Shown one piece after another: positions 7,990-26,794 of a DNA stretch of 32,000 nt. The stretch comes from Synechococcus sp. Nb3U1. GTDB taxonomy: Bacteria > Cyanobacteriota > Cyanobacteriia > Thermostichales > Thermostichaceae. Every line of letters starts with the position of its first letter. Position 1 is the first letter of the stretch. The notes below the pieces were generated by a model, which saw only the letters and a program-made list of their open reading frames with translations, searched no databases and was not told where the DNA came from. The stretch spans positions 1,896,427-1,928,426 of the forward strand of contig NZ_JAKFYQ010000001.1 of the NCBI RefSeq assembly GCF_021533835.1, given 5' to 3'. Made by a program: the position numbers and the translations under genes.

Positions 7990-8236
7990 ATGAGAACGGC
8001 AATCCGTGTCATTTGCTTGTTGAGTCCTGTCACCTGCTGGGTCAGGAGCACCAGTAAGTCTTTGAGCTCTTGATTGTTATCGCTCACAGGCTTAATGCTT
8101 TGGGATGAGCTTTGGGATGAACTGTTGCCCCAACTATAGCGCAGCACTGGCCGGTGAAATTGACCTCGATTCCTGTGGGGGAAAGGGATCCCTACTCATC
8201 GGGAACAACCCACTGTACAGCGATAGAGAGGTTGAA

Positions 8237-18343: not shown

Positions 18344-19774
18344 ATGTCCACAGGATATTTCTCTGTAAAAGAAGCGTCTGAAATGCTTGGCTATTCAGAA
18401 CAATACGTTCGCAGGCTGCTTAGGAGTGGTGAACTCAGCGGAGAATTGATCAGTAATAGATGGGTGATCACATCAGAATCGGCTAATGAATATCGCTATA
18501 AAGAGGATAAACCAGATTCTGTTGTTCCAGATCATGAGAGACGGTCTTCTGGCAAACCTATTTTGAAGGCGTTAAGCTTCTTTTCTGGCTGCATGGGACT
18601 TGATTTGGGGCTGGAAAAAGAAGGAATTGAAGTAATCCTTGCCTGCGAAGTAGATAAAGCCGCACGAAGGACAATCGAATCAAATAAACCTGATATTGCT
18701 CTGATTGGCGATATCAGAGACTATTCAGCTAGACAGATCAGAGAAAAGGCAGGATTAGCCCTTCAAGAAGATATTGATGTAATAGTTGGTGGTCCACCCT
18801 GCCAAGCCTTTAGTAGTGCTGGCAAGAGACAAGGTTTTAATGATGAGCGAGGAAATGTATTTCTAACCTTCATCGATTTGATTATTGAGTTGAAGCCCAA
18901 ATATGCTGTTATTGAAAATGTTAGGGGTTTATTATCCGCTCCTTTGAAGCATAGACCTCACAACATGAGAGGTGATAAAAATTTACCACTATCCCCAGAG
19001 GAAAAGAGAGGTGGAGCGTTACTTCACCTTACTCGTAAGCTGAAAGAAGCAGGCTACAGCTTTTCGTTCAATCTATATAATGCTGCAAACTTTGGTTCAC
19101 CTCAAAGTCGTGAAAGAGTAGTGATTATCTGTAGTCGAGATGGGAAAAAATTGCCTTATCTCACTCCTACGCACTCGGAAAATGGTTTATATGAACTGCC
19201 GAAATGGAGAACACTCAGGGAGGCTCTTCAAGGTTTGCCAACTGATGGGCACTGTTTTGTCAAATTTCCAGAGAAGCGCCTGAAATATTATCGGTTGCTA
19301 AAACCAGGGCAGTATTGGAGAGATTTGCCTACAGAATTACATGAAGAAGCATTAGGAGCCTCATATCATGCTAGTGGTGGAAAGACGGGTTTTTACAGGA
19401 GACTAGCTTGGGACAAGCCTTCTCCAACTTTGGTGACTCATCCAGCGATGCCAGCAACTGACTTAGCACATCCAGAAGAAGATAGACCACTTAGTATTCA
19501 AGAATATAAGCGGATACAAGAATTTCCAGATGACTGGATTATAGAAGGCAGTTTATTAGATCAATATCGACAAGTTGGCAACGCTATTCCATGCTCTCTA
19601 GGTAGGGCGATCGGTAGAATGCTAATTAGTCACTTAAACGGGGAAAGTATAAAAATATTTAACGACTTTCCCTACTCACGTTACAACAACACAGACGATG
19701 TAAGTTGGACAAAAGAAATTATTGGCTCCATAGATGAACCATCAGATAAGCAACTTTGTCTAGCTCTGATCTGA
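18344..19774 (+). CDS. DNA (cytosine-5) methyltransferase with an N-terminal HTH domain
   Basis: Motif I FSGCMGLDLG, motif IV GGPPCQAFSSAG, motif VI ENVRGL, motif VIII QSRERV, motif X QVGNAIP. The N-terminal YFSVKEASEMLGYSEQYVRRLLRSGEL is an excisionase/MerR-like HTH. The ATG at 18344 is preferred over the TTG at 18281. Confidence 0.9.
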   Translation: MSTGYFSVKEASEMLGYSEQYVRRLLRSGELSGELISNRWVITSESANEYRYKEDKPDSVVPDHERRSSGKPILKALSFFSGCMGLDLGLEKEGIEVILACEVDKAARRTIESNKPDIALIGDIRDYSARQIREKAGLALQEDIDVIVGGPPCQAFSSAGKRQGFNDERGNVFLTFIDLIIELKPKYAVIENVRGLLSAPLKHRPHNMRGDKNLPLSPEEKRGGALLHLTRKLKEAGYSFSFNLYNAANFGSPQSRERVVIICSRDGKKLPYLTPTHSENGLYELPKWRTLREALQGLPTDGHCFVKFPEKRLKYYRLLKPGQYWRDLPTELHEEALGASYHASGGKTGFYRRLAWDKPSPTLVTHPAMPATDLAHPEEDRPLSIQEYKRIQEFPDDWIIEGSLLDQYRQVGNAIPCSLGRAIGRMLISHLNGESIKIFNDFPYSRYNNTDDVSWTKEIIGSIDEPSDKQLCLALI

Positions 19775-20524
19775 TAAGTACTGCCAAGGATTTCCCACTT
19801 CCACAGGTAGAGCGTTTGGATTACGTTCTAAAGTTCTCTGAACGAACAAAATGAAATTTTCTTCAGAAAATTGATCAGTATCATATTTTTGATTAAAGTA
19901 TGCCCATTGAAATCTTCCAGTCTTTGCATCAACTCTGTACCATTTCTCAATTGGCTGATTGATACGAACTCTTTGATTGATACGAACTCTTGATGAAGAG
20001 CTATTCTCTGAATTGCTGCGGTTCTTTACTTGCAAGAGAGAACGATCCTTGTGGCAGAAATCAACATGACGTATTACTTCACCCCAGCAACAAAACCATC
20101 CGTAATTTGTTAACTGCTCGGCTAGGAATTCTTCAAGAAGCAATCCCTGAATATTTTCTGCTGACATAGACAACCTATGGGCGTATTTAATCTGCTCAAG
20201 ATGTTCGATCTCTAACCCAGTAAGTCTTGCTTTAATAATTGTTTCAACTATAGAATCCGCAATTGTCCCCGGTGGACTGGACACCCGCTGTGAAATTCTA
20301 CTCTCGAAAGCATTATGGTACTTTTTGAGCCACCTTTGGGCAAGGGCTATTTCTGAAGTGCCCTTTAAGCCTGGAGACAGCCCTGGATTTCTATAACAAG
20401 CTGAAAGAATAACCTCATGTGCTTCCAGAAATAATTCATCTATTTCTGAAAAGGCATCCTTAAAAACTTGCAAAAACTCGCTTTCAGAATTAGCAGTAGC
20501 GATAATGTTATCGAAAGTAACCAT
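19760..20524 (-). CDS. Putative type II restriction endonuclease (partner of the m5C MTase)
   Basis: Convergent with the MTase and overlapping it by 15 bp. A candidate PD-(D/E)xK core is ...HVDFCHKDRSLLQVKNRSNSENSSS. The family assignment is not verified. Confidence 0.55.
   Translation of the reverse strand: MVTFDNIIATANSESEFLQVFKDAFSEIDELFLEAHEVILSACYRNPGLSPGLKGTSEIALAQRWLKKYHNAFESRISQRVSSPPGTIADSIVETIIKARLTGLEIEHLEQIKYAHRLSMSAENIQGLLLEEFLAEQLTNYGWFCCWGEVIRHVDFCHKDRSLLQVKNRSNSENSSSSRVRINQRVRINQPIEKWYRVDAKTGRFQWAYFNQKYDTDQFSEENFILFVQRTLERNPNALPVEVGNPWQYLSDQS
19957..19992. repeat. 18 bp tandem duplication inside the endonuclease gene (in frame)
   Basis: GATTGATACGAACTCTTT / GATTGATACGAACTCTTG. 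It encodes RVRINQ RVRINQ. Confidence 0.9.
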
Positions 20525-20722
20525 GTGATCCGTGAAAGGGTAACTCTATTTTAGAGATGCCCACATTTCCTACACAAATGATTACTTAGTTCATCCAGTA
20601 AACTCTTAAACTTCAAGCGACACAATTCTTAACCGTCTGCCAAGTTCACTTACTCACAACGTTTTAACCGTTCATGCTGGGAAGTAGTCTAAACGGGTGT
20701 GCCCTACAAATAGCTGAAAGCC

Positions 20723-20848
20723 GTATAACGACCAAGCTCAGCGACCGCCGCCGGAAACGCCCGGTCAGCTGCAACCATCGCTGCCAAATTACCTGGACCG
20801 TCCGACTGCCCAGTGAAGCGGCGGTTCGCTGCAGCGCTCTGGTTAGGC
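20723..20848 (-). repeat. attC-2 (126 bp)
   Basis: GTATAAC...GTTAGGC. The arms CAGCGACCGCCGC / GCGGCGGTTCGCTG pair with an extra base. The first 27 nt after the leading G/GT are identical to attC-4. Confidence 0.75.
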
Positions 20849-20855
20849 CACAAGC

Positions 20856-21260
20856 TCACCGACGTGCTTCCACATACCGGGCAAAGCGGTCGAGGATCGC
20901 TTGCCAGCCCGCACGCTACTGCTCGACCGAATGGTCAGCGTCCGCTTCAAACGTCTCGCGCACCGTCACGCCGCTCGCGTTACTGACAAACTCGACGACG
21001 AGGCCACGATCCCCAAGCGAACACTTGATCAGTTCGTAGGGCACGACCTTCGTGTAGATGCCCTCGAAGTCGAAACCGAAACTGCCGTCTTTGGCCTCCA
21101 TGCGCGATGAGAACGCGCCACCAACTCGCAAATCCACCGTGGCGGCTGTGGTGTGCCAGTCATCGGATGCGGCGTTCCACTGCTTGATGTCCTCCGGCGT
21201 CGTCCATGCACGCCATACCTCCTCGATGGGCGCAGTGACCGTGGTCTCTACTGTGATCAT
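20856..21260 (-). pseudogene. SRPBCC / AHSA1-like (Activator of Hsp90 ATPase homologue 1-like) protein with an in-frame TAG
   Basis: MITVETTVTAPIEEVWRAWTTPEDIKQWN... TAG at 20916-20918, then the same frame continues RAGWQAILDRFARYVEARR to the TGA at 20856-20858. Confidence 0.85.
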
Positions 21261-21297
21261 GTGTGATGCTTCCTTGCTGGTTGTGGCGTGTGATGTG

Positions 21298-21384
21298 GCC
21301 TAACGTTCCCAATCAGCGGCTACGAACAACCTTTGCAACACCGCCAAGATCTCTCGGTAGTCCGCTCCAGCCGGGTTGTTATGC
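21298..21384 (-). repeat. attC-3 (87 bp)
   Basis: GCCTAACGTTCCCAATCAGCGGCTAC...GTAGTCCGCTCCAGCCGGGTTGTTATGC. The arms are imperfectly complementary. Confidence 0.8.
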
Positions 21385-21414
21385 TGCTGTTGCTTCTGCT
21401 ATTACCCATTCTTT

Positions 21415-22033: not shown

Positions 22034-22183
22034 TACCTAACCTGCAATGAAGAGAAAAACCTATTGAGAATTGTAGCCCACCAGTCACTTCCTAATTACG
22101 TCTCAATAGAAGATTCGCAACTACTGGGACATCGCGTCCCACCAATAGCTTGCCGCTTACGCTCTCATCGACAACTAAAGGCG

Positions 22184-22275
22184 GCATAACGACCAAGCTC
22201 AGCGACCGCCGCAAATCACCTTTGAATCATAATCGATCAACTCTCGGCGGTCGGTGTGCATGGGCGTTGTTAGGT
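22184..22275 (-). repeat. attC-4 (92 bp)
   Basis: GCATAACGACCAAGCTCAGCGACCGCCGC...CGGCGGTCGGTG...GTTAGGT. The tauE-like ORF terminates inside it. Confidence 0.8.
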
Positions 22276-23105
22276 TGCTGGTACGCAGATGACTTCTTGA
22301 GACCCTGTAATAAGCTGTCACGATTTTGTATTAATACAAATGTGGCAACAGCTAGAAGAAAGTAACCAAAGCCTTTCTGAAGTTGTTTTGTGGAAACAAA
22401 TTGGGCAAGATAGGCTCCAATCACCGTTCCGCAGCCAGCCAAAAAAGTAAATGAAACCGTCAGCGTCCAGTCTAAAGAAACATGCCCTAAATAACCGAGC
22501 AAACCCGCAACAGAATTACAGGCAATAATCAACAGCGAAGTCCCGATCGCCTGTCGCATTGGGATATTGCCCAGCAGCACTAAAGCCGGAACGATCGCAA
22601 AGCCACCCCCAACACCGACCAACCCAGTCAAAACGCCCACAGCGATTCCTTCCGTCATCAGCCATAGCCAGCAATATTTACAGGCAGGTTTGATGTACTG
22701 GATCGATGCTAGCTCATCCTCATTGGACTCAGGCTTTGCCTTAATCGATCGATAAATCATCAAGCCAGCAGCGACCAACATTGAGAGTCCAAACAGAATC
22801 ATCTGGAAGGCACTTGTGATGAATGGAAGTGTAGCCATCCTGGCACCCAGATAAGCCCCCACCATGGTTGCCGAGCCAAAAATTGCCGCTACTTTAAGAT
22901 TCAGATTGCCGCGTCGTGCATGGGGAATGCTACCCAATAAGCTCACACTCCCAACAATAATTAAAGTCATGGCGATCGCGGGTTTCGGCGGGACTCCCAT
23001 GATATAAACCAGCACAGGCAGCGCTAACACCGAACCACCACCACCCAGCAAGCCAAGACTGATCCCAATGCAAACGGCAAAAAGATGCCCAAGAATCCAA
23101 GTCAT
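22227..23105 (-). CDS. TauE/SafE (DUF81) sulfite-exporter-family membrane protein
   Basis: 292 aa polytopic protein with duplicated GGGG-containing halves (LLGGGGSVLALP, LVGVGGGFAIVP). ATGA overlap with the rhodanese gene. Confidence 0.85.
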   Translation of the reverse strand: MTWILGHLFAVCIGISLGLLGGGGSVLALPVLVYIMGVPPKPAIAMTLIIVGSVSLLGSIPHARRGNLNLKVAAIFGSATMVGAYLGARMATLPFITSAFQMILFGLSMLVAAGLMIYRSIKAKPESNEDELASIQYIKPACKYCWLWLMTEGIAVGVLTGLVGVGGGFAIVPALVLLGNIPMRQAIGTSLLIIACNSVAGLLGYLGHVSLDWTLTVSFTFLAGCGTVIGAYLAQFVSTKQLQKGFGYFLLAVATFVLIQNRDSLLQGLKKSSAYQQPNNAHAHRPPRVDRL

Positions 23106-23647
23106 AGTTTATTACCAGATCGTTGGTTATAGGGTAACTTGGCGAGTAGCAATCCCATGGCGCAGGTGTTGGTAATTCCAGCAAACACCAGTCCAGGGCC
23201 AACAAAGCCGCTGAGAAGCAAGAAATTGGGGGATACTAGCACCCCTAAAACAGTTCCTAAAAACACCAAGGAACCAGCCACAATTTGCACCTGCCGAAAC
23301 AGGCTAATCGGGGCATTTTGACTTTTTTCAACACCGTAGCCTGCACTTTTCCAAGTGGAAATACCGCCATGCAGATGTATCACCGAGTCGAATCCTGCAG
23401 CTACACATTTTTGGGCCGCTTGGGTCGATCGATTGCCCGATTGACAGTAGAGCACTAGGGATTTGCCCTCAACCGAACGGAGTTGCTGTGGGTCGAACTG
23501 TGATAAAGGATGGAGCTTCGCGCCAGGAATCCGTTCAGTTGCATGTTCTGCTGATTCACGTACATCCACTAATGTAACGGCATGATCGTCGAGCCATTGC
23601 TTCAAAGTTTGAGCATCAATTGCTTGAATCCGAGTATTGTTCGTCAT
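23102..23647 (-). CDS. Rhodanese domain fused to a DUF2892 membrane anchor (YgaP-like sulfurtransferase)
   Basis: Active-site loop YCQSGNRS. The C-terminal hydrophobic hairpin ends ...ITNTCAMGLLLAKLP. Confidence 0.85.
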   Translation of the reverse strand: MTNNTRIQAIDAQTLKQWLDDHAVTLVDVRESAEHATERIPGAKLHPLSQFDPQQLRSVEGKSLVLYCQSGNRSTQAAQKCVAAGFDSVIHLHGGISTWKSAGYGVEKSQNAPISLFRQVQIVAGSLVFLGTVLGVLVSPNFLLLSGFVGPGLVFAGITNTCAMGLLLAKLPYNQRSGNKL

Positions 23648-23656
23648 GGTTATCCT

Positions 23657-24373
23657 TTAAATTGAGTAGGTGTTAGCAACGATTGCGAGTGTTTGCCCAC
23701 ATCGTTCATTGGCGGGCAATGCCTCCATCATTTTTTGTGGATCGGGCAGATTCAGTTCATTCATAAATTGCCGAAATTCATCGCGACTACGCCCTACAAA
23801 TCGCGGATTCCAGCGTTTTTCCTCGGCCACGGAAGAAACTGTCTGTCCGCGATAGTCATGGGCTGGATAAATCAATGTGGCCTCTGGCAAGGTGAATAAT
23901 CGTTGCGTGACTGAATCAAACAAGGTTTCAGCATTCCCGCTCTGAAAATCCGTGCGCCCACAGCCACGAATCAATAGCGCATCGCCCGTTAGCAAGTGCG
24001 TTCCACCAACAAGATAGGCCATGTGACTATCGGTATGTCCTGGTGTGGCGATCGCTTGCACTTCCACGCCACCAACATGCAGCATTTCACCGTCTTGAAT
24101 AAATCGATCGGCACATGCTACCGACGCTTGATTGGGCACCACACTCAAACATCCCGTCTGTGATCGCAGTTGGGCTGCGCCTGTAACATGATCGGCATGA
24201 ACATGGGTCTCTAAGCAGTAGCGCAGGGTTAAGCCCAATTCTTGCAGTAACTTGAGATCGCGCTCAACCTGCTCTAAGACTGGATCGACTAGGATGGCCT
24301 CGGCAGCCGCACGATCGGCAATCAGATACGTGTAGGTACTGCTTTCACGGTCAAAAAGTTGACGAAATAGCAT
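23657..24373 (-). CDS. MBL-fold persulfide dioxygenase (ETHE1 / Blh-like)
   Basis: HVHADHVTG, TPGHTDSHMAY, and GDALLIRGCGRTDFQSGN are ETHE1-type motifs. ATG at 24373. Confidence 0.85.
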   Translation of the reverse strand: MLFRQLFDRESSTYTYLIADRAAAEAILVDPVLEQVERDLKLLQELGLTLRYCLETHVHADHVTGAAQLRSQTGCLSVVPNQASVACADRFIQDGEMLHVGGVEVQAIATPGHTDSHMAYLVGGTHLLTGDALLIRGCGRTDFQSGNAETLFDSVTQRLFTLPEATLIYPAHDYRGQTVSSVAEEKRWNPRFVGRSRDEFRQFMNELNLPDPQKMMEALPANERCGQTLAIVANTYSI

Positions 24374-24433
24374 CACTATTTACCTTCTTTAAAAATCTAA
24401 CGGACAAATTCCATCTCTCACTCTTTAATCTCT

Positions 24434-25135
24434 TTAGGCAGCCTCAGCAATCTCAGTAATCTCAGCAGTCTCAGGCTCTAAAACTCTACTGTGAGGACTC
24501 GTAAACGTTAATAGCGCTTGCGTCTGCTGACAAGCAATCATCGTTTTGACGTGTTCCCCTTCGTCATCTCGGATATTGATAAACACGTCATAAAGGTTGT
24601 CTACTGTTGGGCGACGTGATTCAGACCGAATAGTGGTTTGAAATTCATCAAACATATAGAGGTCGCCATCTCGATAGTAGTTGATGGCAACCTGTGGCGC
24701 AGGTTGCGTTTTGAGGATTTCGCCATGCGTTTCTAAAAATACGGCATAGGTATGGTATGCATGTTCCTCAATTAGCTCTGCCATGTAATAAGCGGACTTG
24801 GGAAATAGCATATAAAGCGAAATGACGACCCAATAGTATGCCACTGCTAAATGTTGCGCCAAGAAGCGATCACCCCAAACATCATTACCTCCCAATGACT
24901 CCATAATCAGCAAGTGATGTAACTCATTCCAGGTTTCTGCAAAGTGAACCTTCAGAAGGTCTGCCTTGCGCCAAAAGCCGAGGGTTTCATAGAGATGAAG
25001 CACTGATAAATATGCAAAGTAGGGAATGCGAGCAATCGTTTCTAATACTTAGAAGCGCGGGTAGGGGCGATTTTGGTAAACCACATCTGTGATGAATACC
25101 AAGACGCTAACAAATGATCGAATCAAAAGTTTCAT
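24434..25135 (-). pseudogene. Plastoquinol terminal oxidase (PTOX / AOX di-iron family) with an in-frame TAA
   Basis: MKLLIRSF...NRPYPRF*VLETIARIPYFAYLSVLHLYE...ETWNELHHLL...ELIEEHAYH...RDDEGEHV. The TAA at 25049-25051 replaces the aromatic residue in front of the first iron-ligand motif (LET). Confidence 0.85.
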
Positions 25136-25233
25136 GGTCAATCTCCTAAAAGTTGTCAGCAAAACGGCGTAGAGATAGGATTACTCCTGATATTGGCAAA
25201 CCACGGATAAGGTAGTGTCCAATCCTCTTAGGC

Positions 25234-25357
25234 ACTTGAGATCGTGCTCAACCTGCTCTAAGACTGGATCTACTAGGATTGCATCAGCAGAAGCACGATC
25301 GGCAATCAGACACGTGTAGGTACTGCTTTCACGGTCAAAAAGTTGACGAAATAGCAT
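25234..25357 (-). pseudogene. Duplicated 5' fragment (about 41 codons) of the persulfide dioxygenase gene
   Basis: 25234-25363 is roughly 90% identical by eye to 24250-24379. It encodes MLFRQLFDRESSTYT... and then diverges. Confidence 0.75.
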
Positions 25358-25388
25358 CACTACTTGCCCCTCCTTGCGTTTATTGATG

Positions 25389-25408
25389 ATATTACTATAT
25401 AGTAGTAT
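25389..25408. promoter_or_regulatory. Palindromic candidate operator between the arsR-family gene and the blh fragment
   Basis: Perfect 12 bp palindrome TACTATATAGTA (25393-25404), extendable to ATAT-TACTATATAGTA-GTAT with one mismatch pair. Confidence 0.4.
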
Positions 25409-25454
25409 GATGAAAAAGACAAGTCTGAATTAAAATTTGCTTACTCCCGCCCTT

Positions 25455-25810
25455 ATGTCACAAATCCCAATTTCCGCGCTCACCCAAGTTGCCGACTATT
25501 TCAAGGTTCTATCAGAACTGAGTCGGCTGCAAGTATTGTGTGTTCTCAAGGACGGGGCAAAGAATGTGACTGAAATCATTGAAGAAACGAACCTAGGACA
25601 AGCCAACGTTTCCAAGCACTTGAAGATTTTGACCCAAGCAGGAATTGTGAAACGGCAGCCGCAGGGAGTCAGTGTTTACTATCAAATCACTATCAAATCA
25701 CCGACCCCATGATTTTTGATCTATGCGAACTAGTGTGTCAACGCCTCGAAATTCAATTGCAAGAACAGTCACAAGCGTTAAAAACCCTCGACGGGTTGCG
25801 TCAGCCCTAA
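25455..25810 (+). pseudogene. ArsR/SmtB-family (BigR/SqrR-like) regulator, frameshifted by an 11 bp tandem duplication
   Basis: ...FKVLSELSRLQVLCVLKDG...VSKHLKILTQAGIVKRQPQGVSVYYQIT. Removing one copy of TATCAAATCAC restores ...DPMIFDLCELVCQRLEIQLQEQSQALKTLDGLRQP* ending at 25810. Confidence 0.8.
25680..25701. repeat. 11 bp perfect tandem duplication (TATCAAATCAC x2)
   Basis: Read directly: 25680-25690 equals 25691-25701. Confidence 0.95.
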
Positions 25811-25893
25811 TTATTTCGATTTTATGTGAGGTGGACGTGCTGATTTCTATTGAGGGAGGGTTTGAAGCATTGTCCTCACCGATAACCTAAGCA

Positions 25894-26056
25894 ACCTAAC
25901 GGCTCGCGCTTCAGCCGCTCCGCTGCGCTTCGCGGCGCGGCTGGAAACGCTTTTTGGGCGGCACTGCAAAGCTACGCCTCCGAGAGCACTGTCACGACCG
26001 CAAAACCAACCTGCCGCGTAGTGGTAGTGCAATATCGCTGCAAGCGGTTGTTCGGC
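25894..26056 (-). repeat. attC-5 (long, GC-rich, 163 bp)
   Basis: ACCTAAC...GTTCGGC. The arms GCGCTTCAGCCGC / CGCTGCAAGCGG pair imperfectly, and there is an internal GC hairpin at about 25908-25952. The boundaries are supported by box complementarity with the neighbouring attCs. Confidence 0.55.
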
Positions 26057-26096
26057 AGCTACGCGGCGACCAAAACGATAGCCGATTAGAGATGCG

Positions 26097-26768
26097 CTAT
26101 TCGGAGCCGCTCGATAGTCTCCGGGTGGACCCATCAGGCCACGCAGCGATACAGACGCGGTTGCCCGCGCGGTCGGCGAGCCTCCAGTGCGAGGGCGCAT
26201 GAGAGTCGTCAACAATGCGTCCACCCGCTGCAAGCGCTGCTTGTAGTCGTACCATGGCCTGCTCACGCGCAACCGACACATCGATGTGCATCGCGTGCCG
26301 CAAGGGCTTGCTCTCGTTGAGCTCCTGCATCCAGACTGTCGATCCATGTCCAAGGGGGTCTACCGCATTGTCGTCAGCCGCCGGCACGTAGCCCAACACG
26401 GCGCGCCAGAAGTTGACATCTATCTCATCGCGCTTCGCCGCGATTGCAACCTGCACCTCCTGAACAGCGGCACGATCCGCAGGTACATTATGCTCCTGTG
26501 CAATAGCAGAGATGGCCCGCGCAAACTCAATGTGTCGCGGCTCGAGTTGCCAGATGTCGCGCGTCAGCCGAACAGTGAGACGGTCATTCGCTATCGTCAT
26601 CACGACCCCCGAATCCTCAAGACCGGTAATCCCTGCGATTGCTTCGGCTAACCGCACGGCTTCTCTCAGGGACCCGACACGAAAGACAGCCGTCGCTCCT
26701 CCGTGTAGAACGACTCAATCGTCTATGCCTTCAGCGGAAAGAAACTCTTGCCAACCTTGTTCACTCAT
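26097..26768 (-). pseudogene. Pterin-4a-carbinolamine-dehydratase-like plus glyoxalase/VOC-like domain protein with an in-frame TGA
   Basis: MSEQGWQEFLSAEGIDD*VVLHGGATAVFRV...; FWRAVLGY...DPLGHGSTVWMQ...MHIDVSV...WRLADRAGNRVCI. The TGA at 26715-26717 sits where Trp is expected. Confidence 0.8.
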
Positions 26769-26794
26769 GCTTATCGACTCCTGTCTCGCCAGCC

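Follow-up and report, generated by a model that had tools for sequence, protein, structure and literature searches.

The 32,000-nucleotide (nt) stretch of Synechococcus sp. Nb3U1 DNA analysed here, which we call the window (RefSeq assembly GCF_021533835.1, contig NZ_JAKFYQ010000001.1, forward-strand positions 1,896,427 to 1,928,426; positions below are those of the window unless a related locus is named), carries a compact set of sulfur genes: an ArsR-family repressor gene on the plus strand and, divergent from it on the minus strand, genes for a persulfide dioxygenase (PDO, gene pdo), a membrane-anchored rhodanese and a TauE-type exporter, with a gene for plastoquinol terminal oxidase (PTOX) joined in between the promoter and pdo. 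Together they form a 3,710-bp gene cassette bounded by integron attC sites, whose ancestral cargo was a complete, self-regulated persulfide-detoxification operon. The kinds of element involved are already known, namely the integron gene cassette within a sedentary array or a cluster of attC sites lacking an integron integrase (CALIN), and the cyanobacterial ArsR–pdo–rhod–tauE module; what is unusual is the packaging of a complete regulated four-gene operon as a mobile unit, its presence as solo cassettes elsewhere and the capture of PTOX in the window copy. We consider the overall explanation, which combines a cassette array, a mobile operon cassette, the gain of PTOX and present decay, to be likely and hold it with good confidence. 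The features of the cassette and its two flanking sites are as follows.

22190–25899, minus strand: the whole gene cassette, 3,710 bp, running on the top strand from TTAGGT (25899) to the G of its own R′ GTTATGC (22190) and including attC G.
22184–22275, minus strand: attC G, the cassette's own site, with R″ ACCTAAC at 22275–22269 and R′ GTTATGC at 22190–22184 (minus-strand reading).
22227–23105, minus strand: gene for a TauE/SafE-family exporter of 292 amino acids, intact (PF01925, 6.9e-47) and syntenic in all close relatives.
23102–23647, minus strand: gene for a membrane-anchored, YgaP-like single-domain rhodanese of 181 amino acids, intact (PF00581, 2.3e-17; PF11127, 5.2e-7).
23657–24376, minus strand: pdo, intact, assigned to the ETHE1-type (type I) persulfide dioxygenases from PDB matches and metal motifs.
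24235–24384, minus strand: repeat copy 1, the ribosome-binding site (RBS) and first 46 codons of the intact pdo.
24385–25218, minus strand: segment absent from all related cassettes (a blastn gap against loci L089–L096), comprising PTOX and its native flanks.
24434–25135, minus strand: PTOX pseudogene (alternative oxidase (AOX) family, PF01786), 233 codons with one lesion.
25219–25368, minus strand: repeat copy 2, a promoter-proximal pdo stub (open reading frame (ORF) 25181–25360, 59 amino acids, about 46 of them from pdo).
25369–25454, no strand assigned: putative divergent promoter/operator region with a palindrome at 25380–25417 and back-to-back −35/−10-like hexamers.
25455–25810, plus strand: ArsR/SmtB-family (SqrR/BigR-like) repressor gene with an ArsR helix-turn-helix (HTH) match, broken by an 11-bp tandem duplication.
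25894–26056, minus strand: attC H, 163 nt, the site of the upstream Glyoxalase_6 cassette, whose R′ GTTAGGT (25900–25894) is the start of the sulfide cassette.

The three structural genes are intact and evolve under strong purifying selection (dN/dS 0.08–0.15). Alignment identifies the metallo-β-lactamase (MBL) protein as an ETHE1-type persulfide dioxygenase, as the first-pass annotation of this DNA had proposed: it matches the Myxococcus PDO structure 4ysb at 2e-82 over residues 2–230 of 239, the PDO domain of BpPRF (5ve3) at 3e-71, human ETHE1 (4chl) at 1.6e-68 and 2gcu at 4.4e-65, with glyoxalase II chains reaching only about 1e-18, and its metal motifs THVHADH, TPGHTD and TGDALL align identically with those of characterised PDOs. 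Translation probably starts at the ATG at 24373, the gene caller's choice, giving 238 amino acids (239 in the GTG-start version, of which no exact record exists). The intact pdo has a dN/dS of 0.15 against its relative in locus L092 and of 0.11–0.15 overall, and the rhodanese, with the active-site loop CQSGNRS and a YgaP-type membrane anchor, one of 0.08 against L092. The gene content given earlier was thus recovered throughout (TauE, a rhodanese with a YgaP transmembrane domain, an MBL protein, an AOX/PTOX and an ArsR HTH regulator), and the window holds no gene for sulfide:quinone reductase (SQR), likewise as had been noted. The accompanying BigR/Blh label stands as an analogy of logic and superfamily, but neither protein is an equivalog: measured against the NCBIfam equivalog cut-offs, the regulator scores 45.8 bits on the BigR model NF040642 (cut-off 155) and the MBL protein 107 bits on the bifunctional Blh model NF040641 (cut-off 625), covering only profile positions 145–404 of 423, the MBL half.

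The regulator is indeed of the ArsR family and on the plus strand, but it had been overlooked that the gene is broken. An 11-bp tandem duplication (CTATCAAATCA at 25679–25700) shifts the frame before the last helix, so that the product stops at 25710–25712 and lacks helix α5 and the C-terminal cysteine motif LCELVC; such a truncated repressor is probably unable to dimerise or sense. Removing the 11 bp gives a protein with 92–94% full-length identity to the three intact regulators closest to it. Its best model is the generic ArsR/SmtB NF033788 (81.8 bits), its α2 cysteine aligns with the cysteine in the RLMIMCYL segment of SqrR, and the LCELVC motif of the repaired protein is conserved in the closest relatives, a correspondence that stops short of a residue-level alignment to BigR C108 or SqrR C107. 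A PDB profile search was uninformative as to subfamily, metal sensors matching as well as SqrR and BigR. Upstream, a promoter scan of 25369–25454 was not significant alone; the region resembles the upstream regions of the relatives, and the palindrome at 25380–25417 is a candidate operator.

That these genes form one cassette was first proposed from a single pair of 7-mer boxes, GTTAGGT at 22269–22275 and its complement ACCTAAC at 25894–25900. A scan of the window finds both, but as stand-alone evidence such boxes were rejected, with 3 matches found against 2.0 expected by chance. The case for them comes from the array as a whole and from homology breaks in related loci. Seven related imperfect palindromes of 86–163 nt, with the common ends YTAACG...GTTGTTRRRY, lie between the array genes, and consecutive sites obey the cassette rule: each R′ (the 7-mer that follows the crossover G) is complementary to the R″ of the following site, with a perfect match for five of the seven cassettes and one mismatch for the remaining two. 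The consensus hairpin of five sites, one of them on the contiguous sequence L001, has 21 pairs with compensatory changes in 10, and carries two bulged bases on the 3′ arm of the plus strand. In attC architecture it is the bulged strand that is the recombinogenic bottom strand. Most genes here lie on the minus strand, each followed by a site, and this orientation together with the bulges makes plus the bottom strand and minus the top strand of the array, with an integrase expected to the right.

A covariance model (R1), built from these five sites, matches sites outside its training set: attC G at 22182–22277 (31 bits, E 7e-5 to 8e-6 on the plus (bottom) strand versus 16 bits on the minus strand), attC F at 20721–20850 (E 6e-3) and several more in L001, out to about 41 kb in window terms. 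attC G contains a 24-nt imperfect inverted repeat, and the site has a DNA fold energy of −23.8 kcal/mol. R1 returns no match in 0.47 Mb of PDO loci and, in 1.22 Mb of control cyanobacterial DNA, only six, clustered in three loci, so that seven sites in 16 kb of the window compare with six in 1.2 Mb of control DNA. Sites of this family also occur as same-strand pairs within 10 kb of PTOX genes in Stenomitos frigidus ULC18 (L074, 399–2531) and in metagenome-assembled genomes (MAGs) of a Chamaesiphon (L079, 4133–6842) and a Xenococcaceae member (L023, 2002–4566), from which it follows that the attC family is spread over several cyanobacterial orders.

The window from 16.3 to 32 kb and at least 9 kb beyond it (contig L001, to window-equivalent 41,061), at least 25 kb in all, is a chromosomal integron gene-cassette array of a cyanobacterium. 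Composition breaks at about 16.3 kb, from about 57% GC on the left to about 44% GC on the right with two islands of 61% GC. To the left lie housekeeping genes (accD, RNase II, an S1-domain protein and ABC transporters), and to the right an IS110-family transposase, a SinI-type restriction-modification pair, AHSA1, a HepT/MNT toxin-antitoxin pair, Glyoxalase_6, a PIN protein and a MerR–ArsP set. HIP1 sites (GCGATCGC) are present in the window sequence, and all close homologues are cyanobacterial.

The limits of the cassette, set with the crossover at G|TT, are drawn independently by its relatives. The closest PDO homologues (86–91% amino-acid identity) lie in eight loci, L089–L096, all arranged as an ArsR gene divergent from PDO, rhodanese/YgaP and TauE; there, in other cyanobacteria, the module without PTOX is 86–88% identical to the window copy at the nucleotide level. 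This homology (blastn) covers 25898–25219 and 24384–22266 and ends within three bases of each box, with breakpoints against four related loci at 25898–25901 and 22266–22267. At its upstream limit the break falls at attC H, the ends of which align with the other six sites. The unit common to L089 and L092 is exactly 2,710 nt long, from a TTAGGT-type start to the ...AACGTT of the attC R′, and its flanks are unrelated (urease/phosphorylase in L089, kaiABC in L092); an attC follows tauE directly in L089 and L092–L094, where R1 scores 60–70 bits. A unit with identical limits in unrelated contexts (the window array, L089 and L092) marks the operon as a discrete mobile unit. The sulfide-detoxification module moves as a unit, and exists as a 2.7-kb solo cassette with its own attC at two unrelated cyanobacterial chromosomal sites. 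The proposal of a single multigene integron-type cassette is therefore upheld by the homology limits, the covarying hairpin, the attC model and this 2,710-nt unit.

The tauE frame runs into the attC and stops there, its last ~16 codons and stop codon lying inside attC G, and the C-terminal tail varies accordingly, from 292 amino acids in the window to 290 and 299 in relatives. That homology of the module ends just past R″ in every relative implies attC exchange at R″. The attC lies at 8094–8185 in L089 and L092–L094, whose cassettes are solo, with one attC per 10–13-kb locus in ordinary chromosomal neighbourhoods; in L095 (2176–2266) and L096 (2919–3009) the nearest attC is 70 nt downstream in the opposite orientation.

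Several observations weigh against a self-regulated persulfide cassette moved by an integrase. The window and the adjoining 9 kb of L001 (41 kb in all) yielded no integron integrase, attI or Pc, and no tyrosine recombinase appears among the window ORFs or the L001 genes up to window-equivalent 41,061. Site H is weaker than the other sites and is not recognised by R1, even with filters off. The window, L089/L092 and L095/L096 have one R″ box in common but a different sequence after it in each of the three, which canonical R′ recombination does not explain. The regulator, by sequence alone, is no closer to BigR/SqrR than to metal-sensing ArsR proteins, and mobility through an integrase would be a reading of the site architecture. 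The array continues past the available sequence, and an integrase may lie farther on; because none is within reach, the array, as visible, is operationally a CALIN or else a sedentary integron of which the distal part is seen.

The first two of these points would also suit a different account, in which the operon is plain chromosomal DNA and the palindromes beside it are either terminators of the ordinary kind or repeats dispersed in cyanobacteria, as would the absence of R1 matches in 0.47 Mb of sequence around 80 metagenomic PDO operons of 47–73% identity. We consider this account very unlikely. Against it stand the R′/R″ rule holding over seven consecutive units, the covariation of a hairpin bulged on one strand only, the clustering of the sites, limits that are identical in three unrelated contexts and end at GTT, and a cassette-typical content of toxin-antitoxin and restriction-modification genes and small ORFs, with an IS110-family element inside an attC. 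The 80 distant operons lack attC sites, which confines the cassette form to the clade of the window copy.

Relative to the 2.7-kb cassettes, the window copy has gained 984 bp: 150 nt that repeat the start of pdo, and 834 bp that only this copy has; both PTOX and the repeat are absent from all eight close relatives, which agrees with the earlier view of PTOX and the duplicated pdo 5′ end as an insertion. A piece of about 0.83 kb of an ordinary cupin–PTOX–X locus has been joined between the promoter and pdo, leaving a 150-nt direct repeat of the pdo start. The segment brings native sequence on both sides of PTOX, about 70 nt at the 5′ end, where the RBS lies, and about 40 nt at the 3′ end: nucleotide homology to other PTOX loci extends upstream as far as 25164, and the 3′ flank resembles, by eye, the intergenic region downstream of PTOX in locus L002. 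The closest PTOX genes (82–87% amino-acid identity) sit in cupin–PTOX–(GMC oxidoreductase / PNPOx / P-type ATPase) neighbourhoods, and a locus of the cupin–PTOX–X type is the likely donor. The sole lesion is a TAA at codon 29 (25049–25051), where 111 of 120 homologues have Tyr, and the stop codon noted earlier is thereby placed; on alignment all di-iron ligand motifs (LET, NELHH, EEH, DEGEH) are kept, in line with the earlier identification as PTOX, the 189-residue ORF matches PF01786 at 3.1e-23, and a restart downstream of the TAA would cost the first Glu ligand.

Two further ways of bringing PTOX under the cassette scheme were considered and rejected. PTOX is not a nested integron cassette: a GTTAGAT box at the PTOX/pdo junction (24395–24401) lies ~36 nt from the PTOX stop, with no AAC box and no palindrome. 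Nor is it a cassette gene in L023, where an attC lies 570 nt downstream and the gene has its usual SDR–cupin–PTOX chromosomal context, abutting a toxin-antitoxin cassette.

The first reading had put the repeat at 130 bp; it is present and slightly wider, 150 nt at 24235–24384 and 25219–25368. Its copies are 89% identical, differing at 16 of 150 positions, with a longest exact run of 51 nt. The stub evolves neutrally, with 8 nonsynonymous and 3 synonymous changes in 46 codons against L092 (dN/dS about 0.8). It has ancestral states in common with L092 that are missing from the resident pdo, and its synonymous distance is 0.10 to L092 and 0.20 to the resident pdo, from small counts. Since the stub is no closer to the resident gene than to the foreign L092 allele, the part of the earlier proposal that holds is that PTOX was inserted together with a repeat of the pdo 5′ end; a simple recent duplication in situ is not shown. 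These distances would fit an old in-situ duplication-insertion and, equally, a chimera of two diverged cassette alleles. The joining itself may have come about by illegitimate or microhomology-mediated recombination or by recombination of two such alleles.

That the duplication, the stop codon or the frameshift is a misassembly or sequencing error is extremely improbable in our view. Contigs of an independent Logan assembly of run SRR17483484 do break inside the repeat, where short-read graphs are ambiguous, but the copies differ enough for reads to separate them. Contig L101 (993 nt) equals window 24349–25341 exactly, over both junctions and the TAA, and L001 equals window 25333–32000 exactly, over the 11-bp duplication; both end within the 51-nt exact part, as expected for a true repeat. 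These exact matches settle in the negative the concern that the duplication might be an assembly artefact.

The window copy is decaying, with a neutral pdo stub, a PTOX nonsense codon and a frameshifted repressor beside an intact pdo, rhodanese gene and tauE. These three independent lesions within 1.5 kb would suit a neutral accident: PTOX would have come in by a recent rearrangement of no adaptive value, in an array prone to recombination and perhaps involving two diverged cassette copies, would never have been selected in this position, and the whole cassette would be heading for loss. The arrangement is conserved at none of the other loci surveyed, the array also holds an insertion sequence (IS) and at least one other interrupted ORF, and the ancestral stub states missing from the resident pdo fit a chimera of two alleles. 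Purifying selection on pdo, the rhodanese gene and tauE speaks against such an accident, as does a PTOX without decay beyond its stop codon. We regard this account as evenly poised.

The state of PTOX also admits recruitment, in which it was a functional member of the operon until very recently, driven by a persulfide-responsive promoter and acting as a sulfide-insensitive quinol oxidase that kept plastoquinone oxidised and SQR running while sulfide poisoned the haem-copper oxidases. Across 120 homologues, 103 columns reach at least 95% conservation, and PTOX deviates at none of them (the median of the others is 1); its lesion is a one-base change from Tyr to TAA, and its dN/dS against the nearest relatives is 0.03–0.05. 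It lies in sense orientation with its own RBS downstream of the operon promoter. Given that PTOX is unchanged at these columns while the adjoining stub drifts, it may have been functional here until recently; if both came in one event, selection held PTOX while the stub decayed. However, stub and PTOX may differ in age, and a recent arrival of PTOX explains its perfect conservation as well; the closest PTOX genes have cupin/GMC-oxidoreductase contexts, the gene is dead now, and SQR is missing from the window.

Synteny of PTOX with persulfide genes in other cyanobacteria, which the first-pass annotation had suggested looking for, was not found: an intact PDO lies within 10 kb of PTOX in none of 80 GTDB PTOX loci (L076 has only a PDO fragment), and PTOX occurs at none of 88 PDO loci (80 metagenomic loci and the eight close cassette relatives). 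The best match in the GTDB scan was no closer than 77% identity. None of the plasmids carries both PTOX and an ArsR–MBL–TauE module, although plasmids of Nostoc and Acaryochloris have related ArsR–MBL–TauE modules and, separately, PTOX genes, at 66–72% identity. This linkage is conserved nowhere else that was looked at, and we therefore treat a physiological coupling of the two as hypothetical.

One of the 80 PTOX loci, and only one, has persulfide-sensor-like neighbours. In L080 (6011–10034, from the MAG Synechococcales cyanobacterium RM1_1_8), a BigR-like gene is divergent from two YeeE/YedE-type sulfur-transport genes and an HxlR-type regulator gene is divergent from PTOX, followed by a second BigR-like gene. 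The position of PTOX between two BigR-like regulator genes and beside YeeE/YedE genes counts in favour of recruitment, as does the sulfide resistance of AOX-type oxidases (PMC5589949). Weighing the unique arrangement against these points, we find recruitment possible yet doubtful. The wider proposal, that a cyanobacterial lineage wired PTOX into a persulfide-sensing operon and the combined unit then circulated as an integron cassette, is in our opinion similarly unlikely: if true, SQR-derived electrons could still reach O2 under sulfide with the haem-copper oxidases inhibited, and a flawless PTOX beside a decayed stub would record a period of selection that came to an end not long ago. If it was ever functional, the capture would connect PTOX genetically with sulfide metabolism for the first time; at present it is a single, now-broken instance.

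Judging from the protein families, the intact module would work as a thiol switch set before a short pathway. The repressor would sit on the palindrome at 25380–25417, between the back-to-back promoter-like hexamers, until sulfane sulfur bridged its two cysteines and released the operator. PDO would then oxidise glutathione or low-molecular-weight persulfide to sulfite, the rhodanese would move sulfane sulfur, for example in converting sulfite to thiosulfate, and TauE would export the oxyanion. As the regulator is frameshifted, the window operon is probably no longer sulfide-regulated; the cassette promoter would drive the stub, the PTOX pseudogene, pdo, the rhodanese gene and tauE, probably constitutively.

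The remaining array offers several observations of its own. Window 28704–31205 holds a second regulated operon as a cassette: a MerR regulator, a DSP-phosphatase-like protein, a Thioredoxin_3 protein and an ArsP permease, all encoded on the plus strand, antisense to the array. It is delimited by attC D and attC C, and the boxes of these two sites are perfect complements (GTTAGAT / ATCTAAC). The SinI-type pair, a C5 methylase with an HTH domain (18281–19774, plus strand) and RE_SinI (19760–20524, minus strand), apparently occupies one cassette of about 2.6 kb (18224–20848). The AHSA1 cassette (20850–21386, gene 20916–21260) and the Glyoxalase_6 cassette (25900–26883, gene 26097–26657) have about 61% GC inside a 44% GC array, which suggests a different, high-GC donor for their cargo. 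On the minus strand at 31291–32000, a membrane-protein frame that extends past the end of the window has an in-frame stop near 31730; it probably represents one more cassette gene in decay. The IS110-family element (16331–18223) splits the last attC of the array into halves at about 16331–16397 and about 18217–18223 (GTTATGC); its transposase (16745–18046) has DEDD_Tnp_IS110 and Transposase_20 domains, and two 64-nt direct repeats (16415–16478 and 16534–16597) lie at its left end. We take the element to resemble the attC-targeting IS1111-attC group.

Integron cassettes are usually regarded as single promoterless genes and, to our knowledge, integrons have barely been studied in cyanobacteria. 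Here a whole sensor-plus-pathway module (repressor, operator, dioxygenase, sulfurtransferase and exporter) is one attC-bounded unit, which occurs both within an array and, by itself, in the chromosomes of different cyanobacteria. These occurrences point to an ability of integrons, or of their cassettes at secondary sites, to spread regulated physiology in ready-to-use form, with sulfide tolerance as an example. The joining of the same module to three attC contexts exactly at R″ is additionally a data point on how cassettes and attC sites assemble or exchange.

Among known systems, the BigR–Blh operon of Xylella fastidiosa and Agrobacterium tumefaciens, reportedly described by Guimaraes and colleagues in 2011, has a common logic with the window module: an ArsR-family thiol-switch repressor, an MBL-fold sulfur dioxygenase, TauE-like membrane proteins and H2S detoxification. 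The window dioxygenase, however, is a stand-alone ETHE1-type enzyme and not the bifunctional, 423-position Blh, and its rhodanese is a separate membrane-anchored protein. BigR/SqrR-type persulfide sensors switch through a di- or tetrasulfide formed by a conserved cysteine pair, one in helix α2 and one in the C-terminal helix. With SqrR of Rhodobacter capsulatus and CstR-type sensors, the regulator has in common the winged-helix ArsR fold; its α2 cysteine aligns with that of SqrR, and a second cysteine, in the C-terminal helix of the repaired protein and of its relatives, is a candidate partner. In sequence it resembles SqrR no more than it does CzrA and SmtB, which are metal sensors, and the window allele has lost the C-terminal cysteine through the frameshift. 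The window PTOX belongs to the same di-iron quinol oxidase family (PF01786) as cyanobacterial PTOX/AOX, with its ligand motifs kept, and differs in being a pseudogene inside a sulfide operon.

The closest counterpart in gene content is the pdo–rhod–tauE cluster of Synechococcus sp. PCC 7002, which has the same three structural genes, reported to be induced by H2Sn (PMC12466478); the same gene order with a divergent ArsR gene recurs in L089–L096 and several closer metagenomic loci. Compared with the PCC 7002 cluster, the window module is attC-bounded in a cassette array and has a PTOX insertion, a pdo stub and a frameshifted regulator. Its setting is like that of sedentary integrons and CALIN (Cury et al. 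2016, PMC4889954) in having attC units in one orientation, toxin-antitoxin and restriction-modification genes, an IS in the array, and solo or secondary-site cassettes without a nearby integrase. Whereas a typical cassette is one promoterless ORF of about 0.5–1 kb, this one is 2.7 kb long (3.7 kb in the window) and carries four or five genes, its own divergent promoter and a dedicated repressor.

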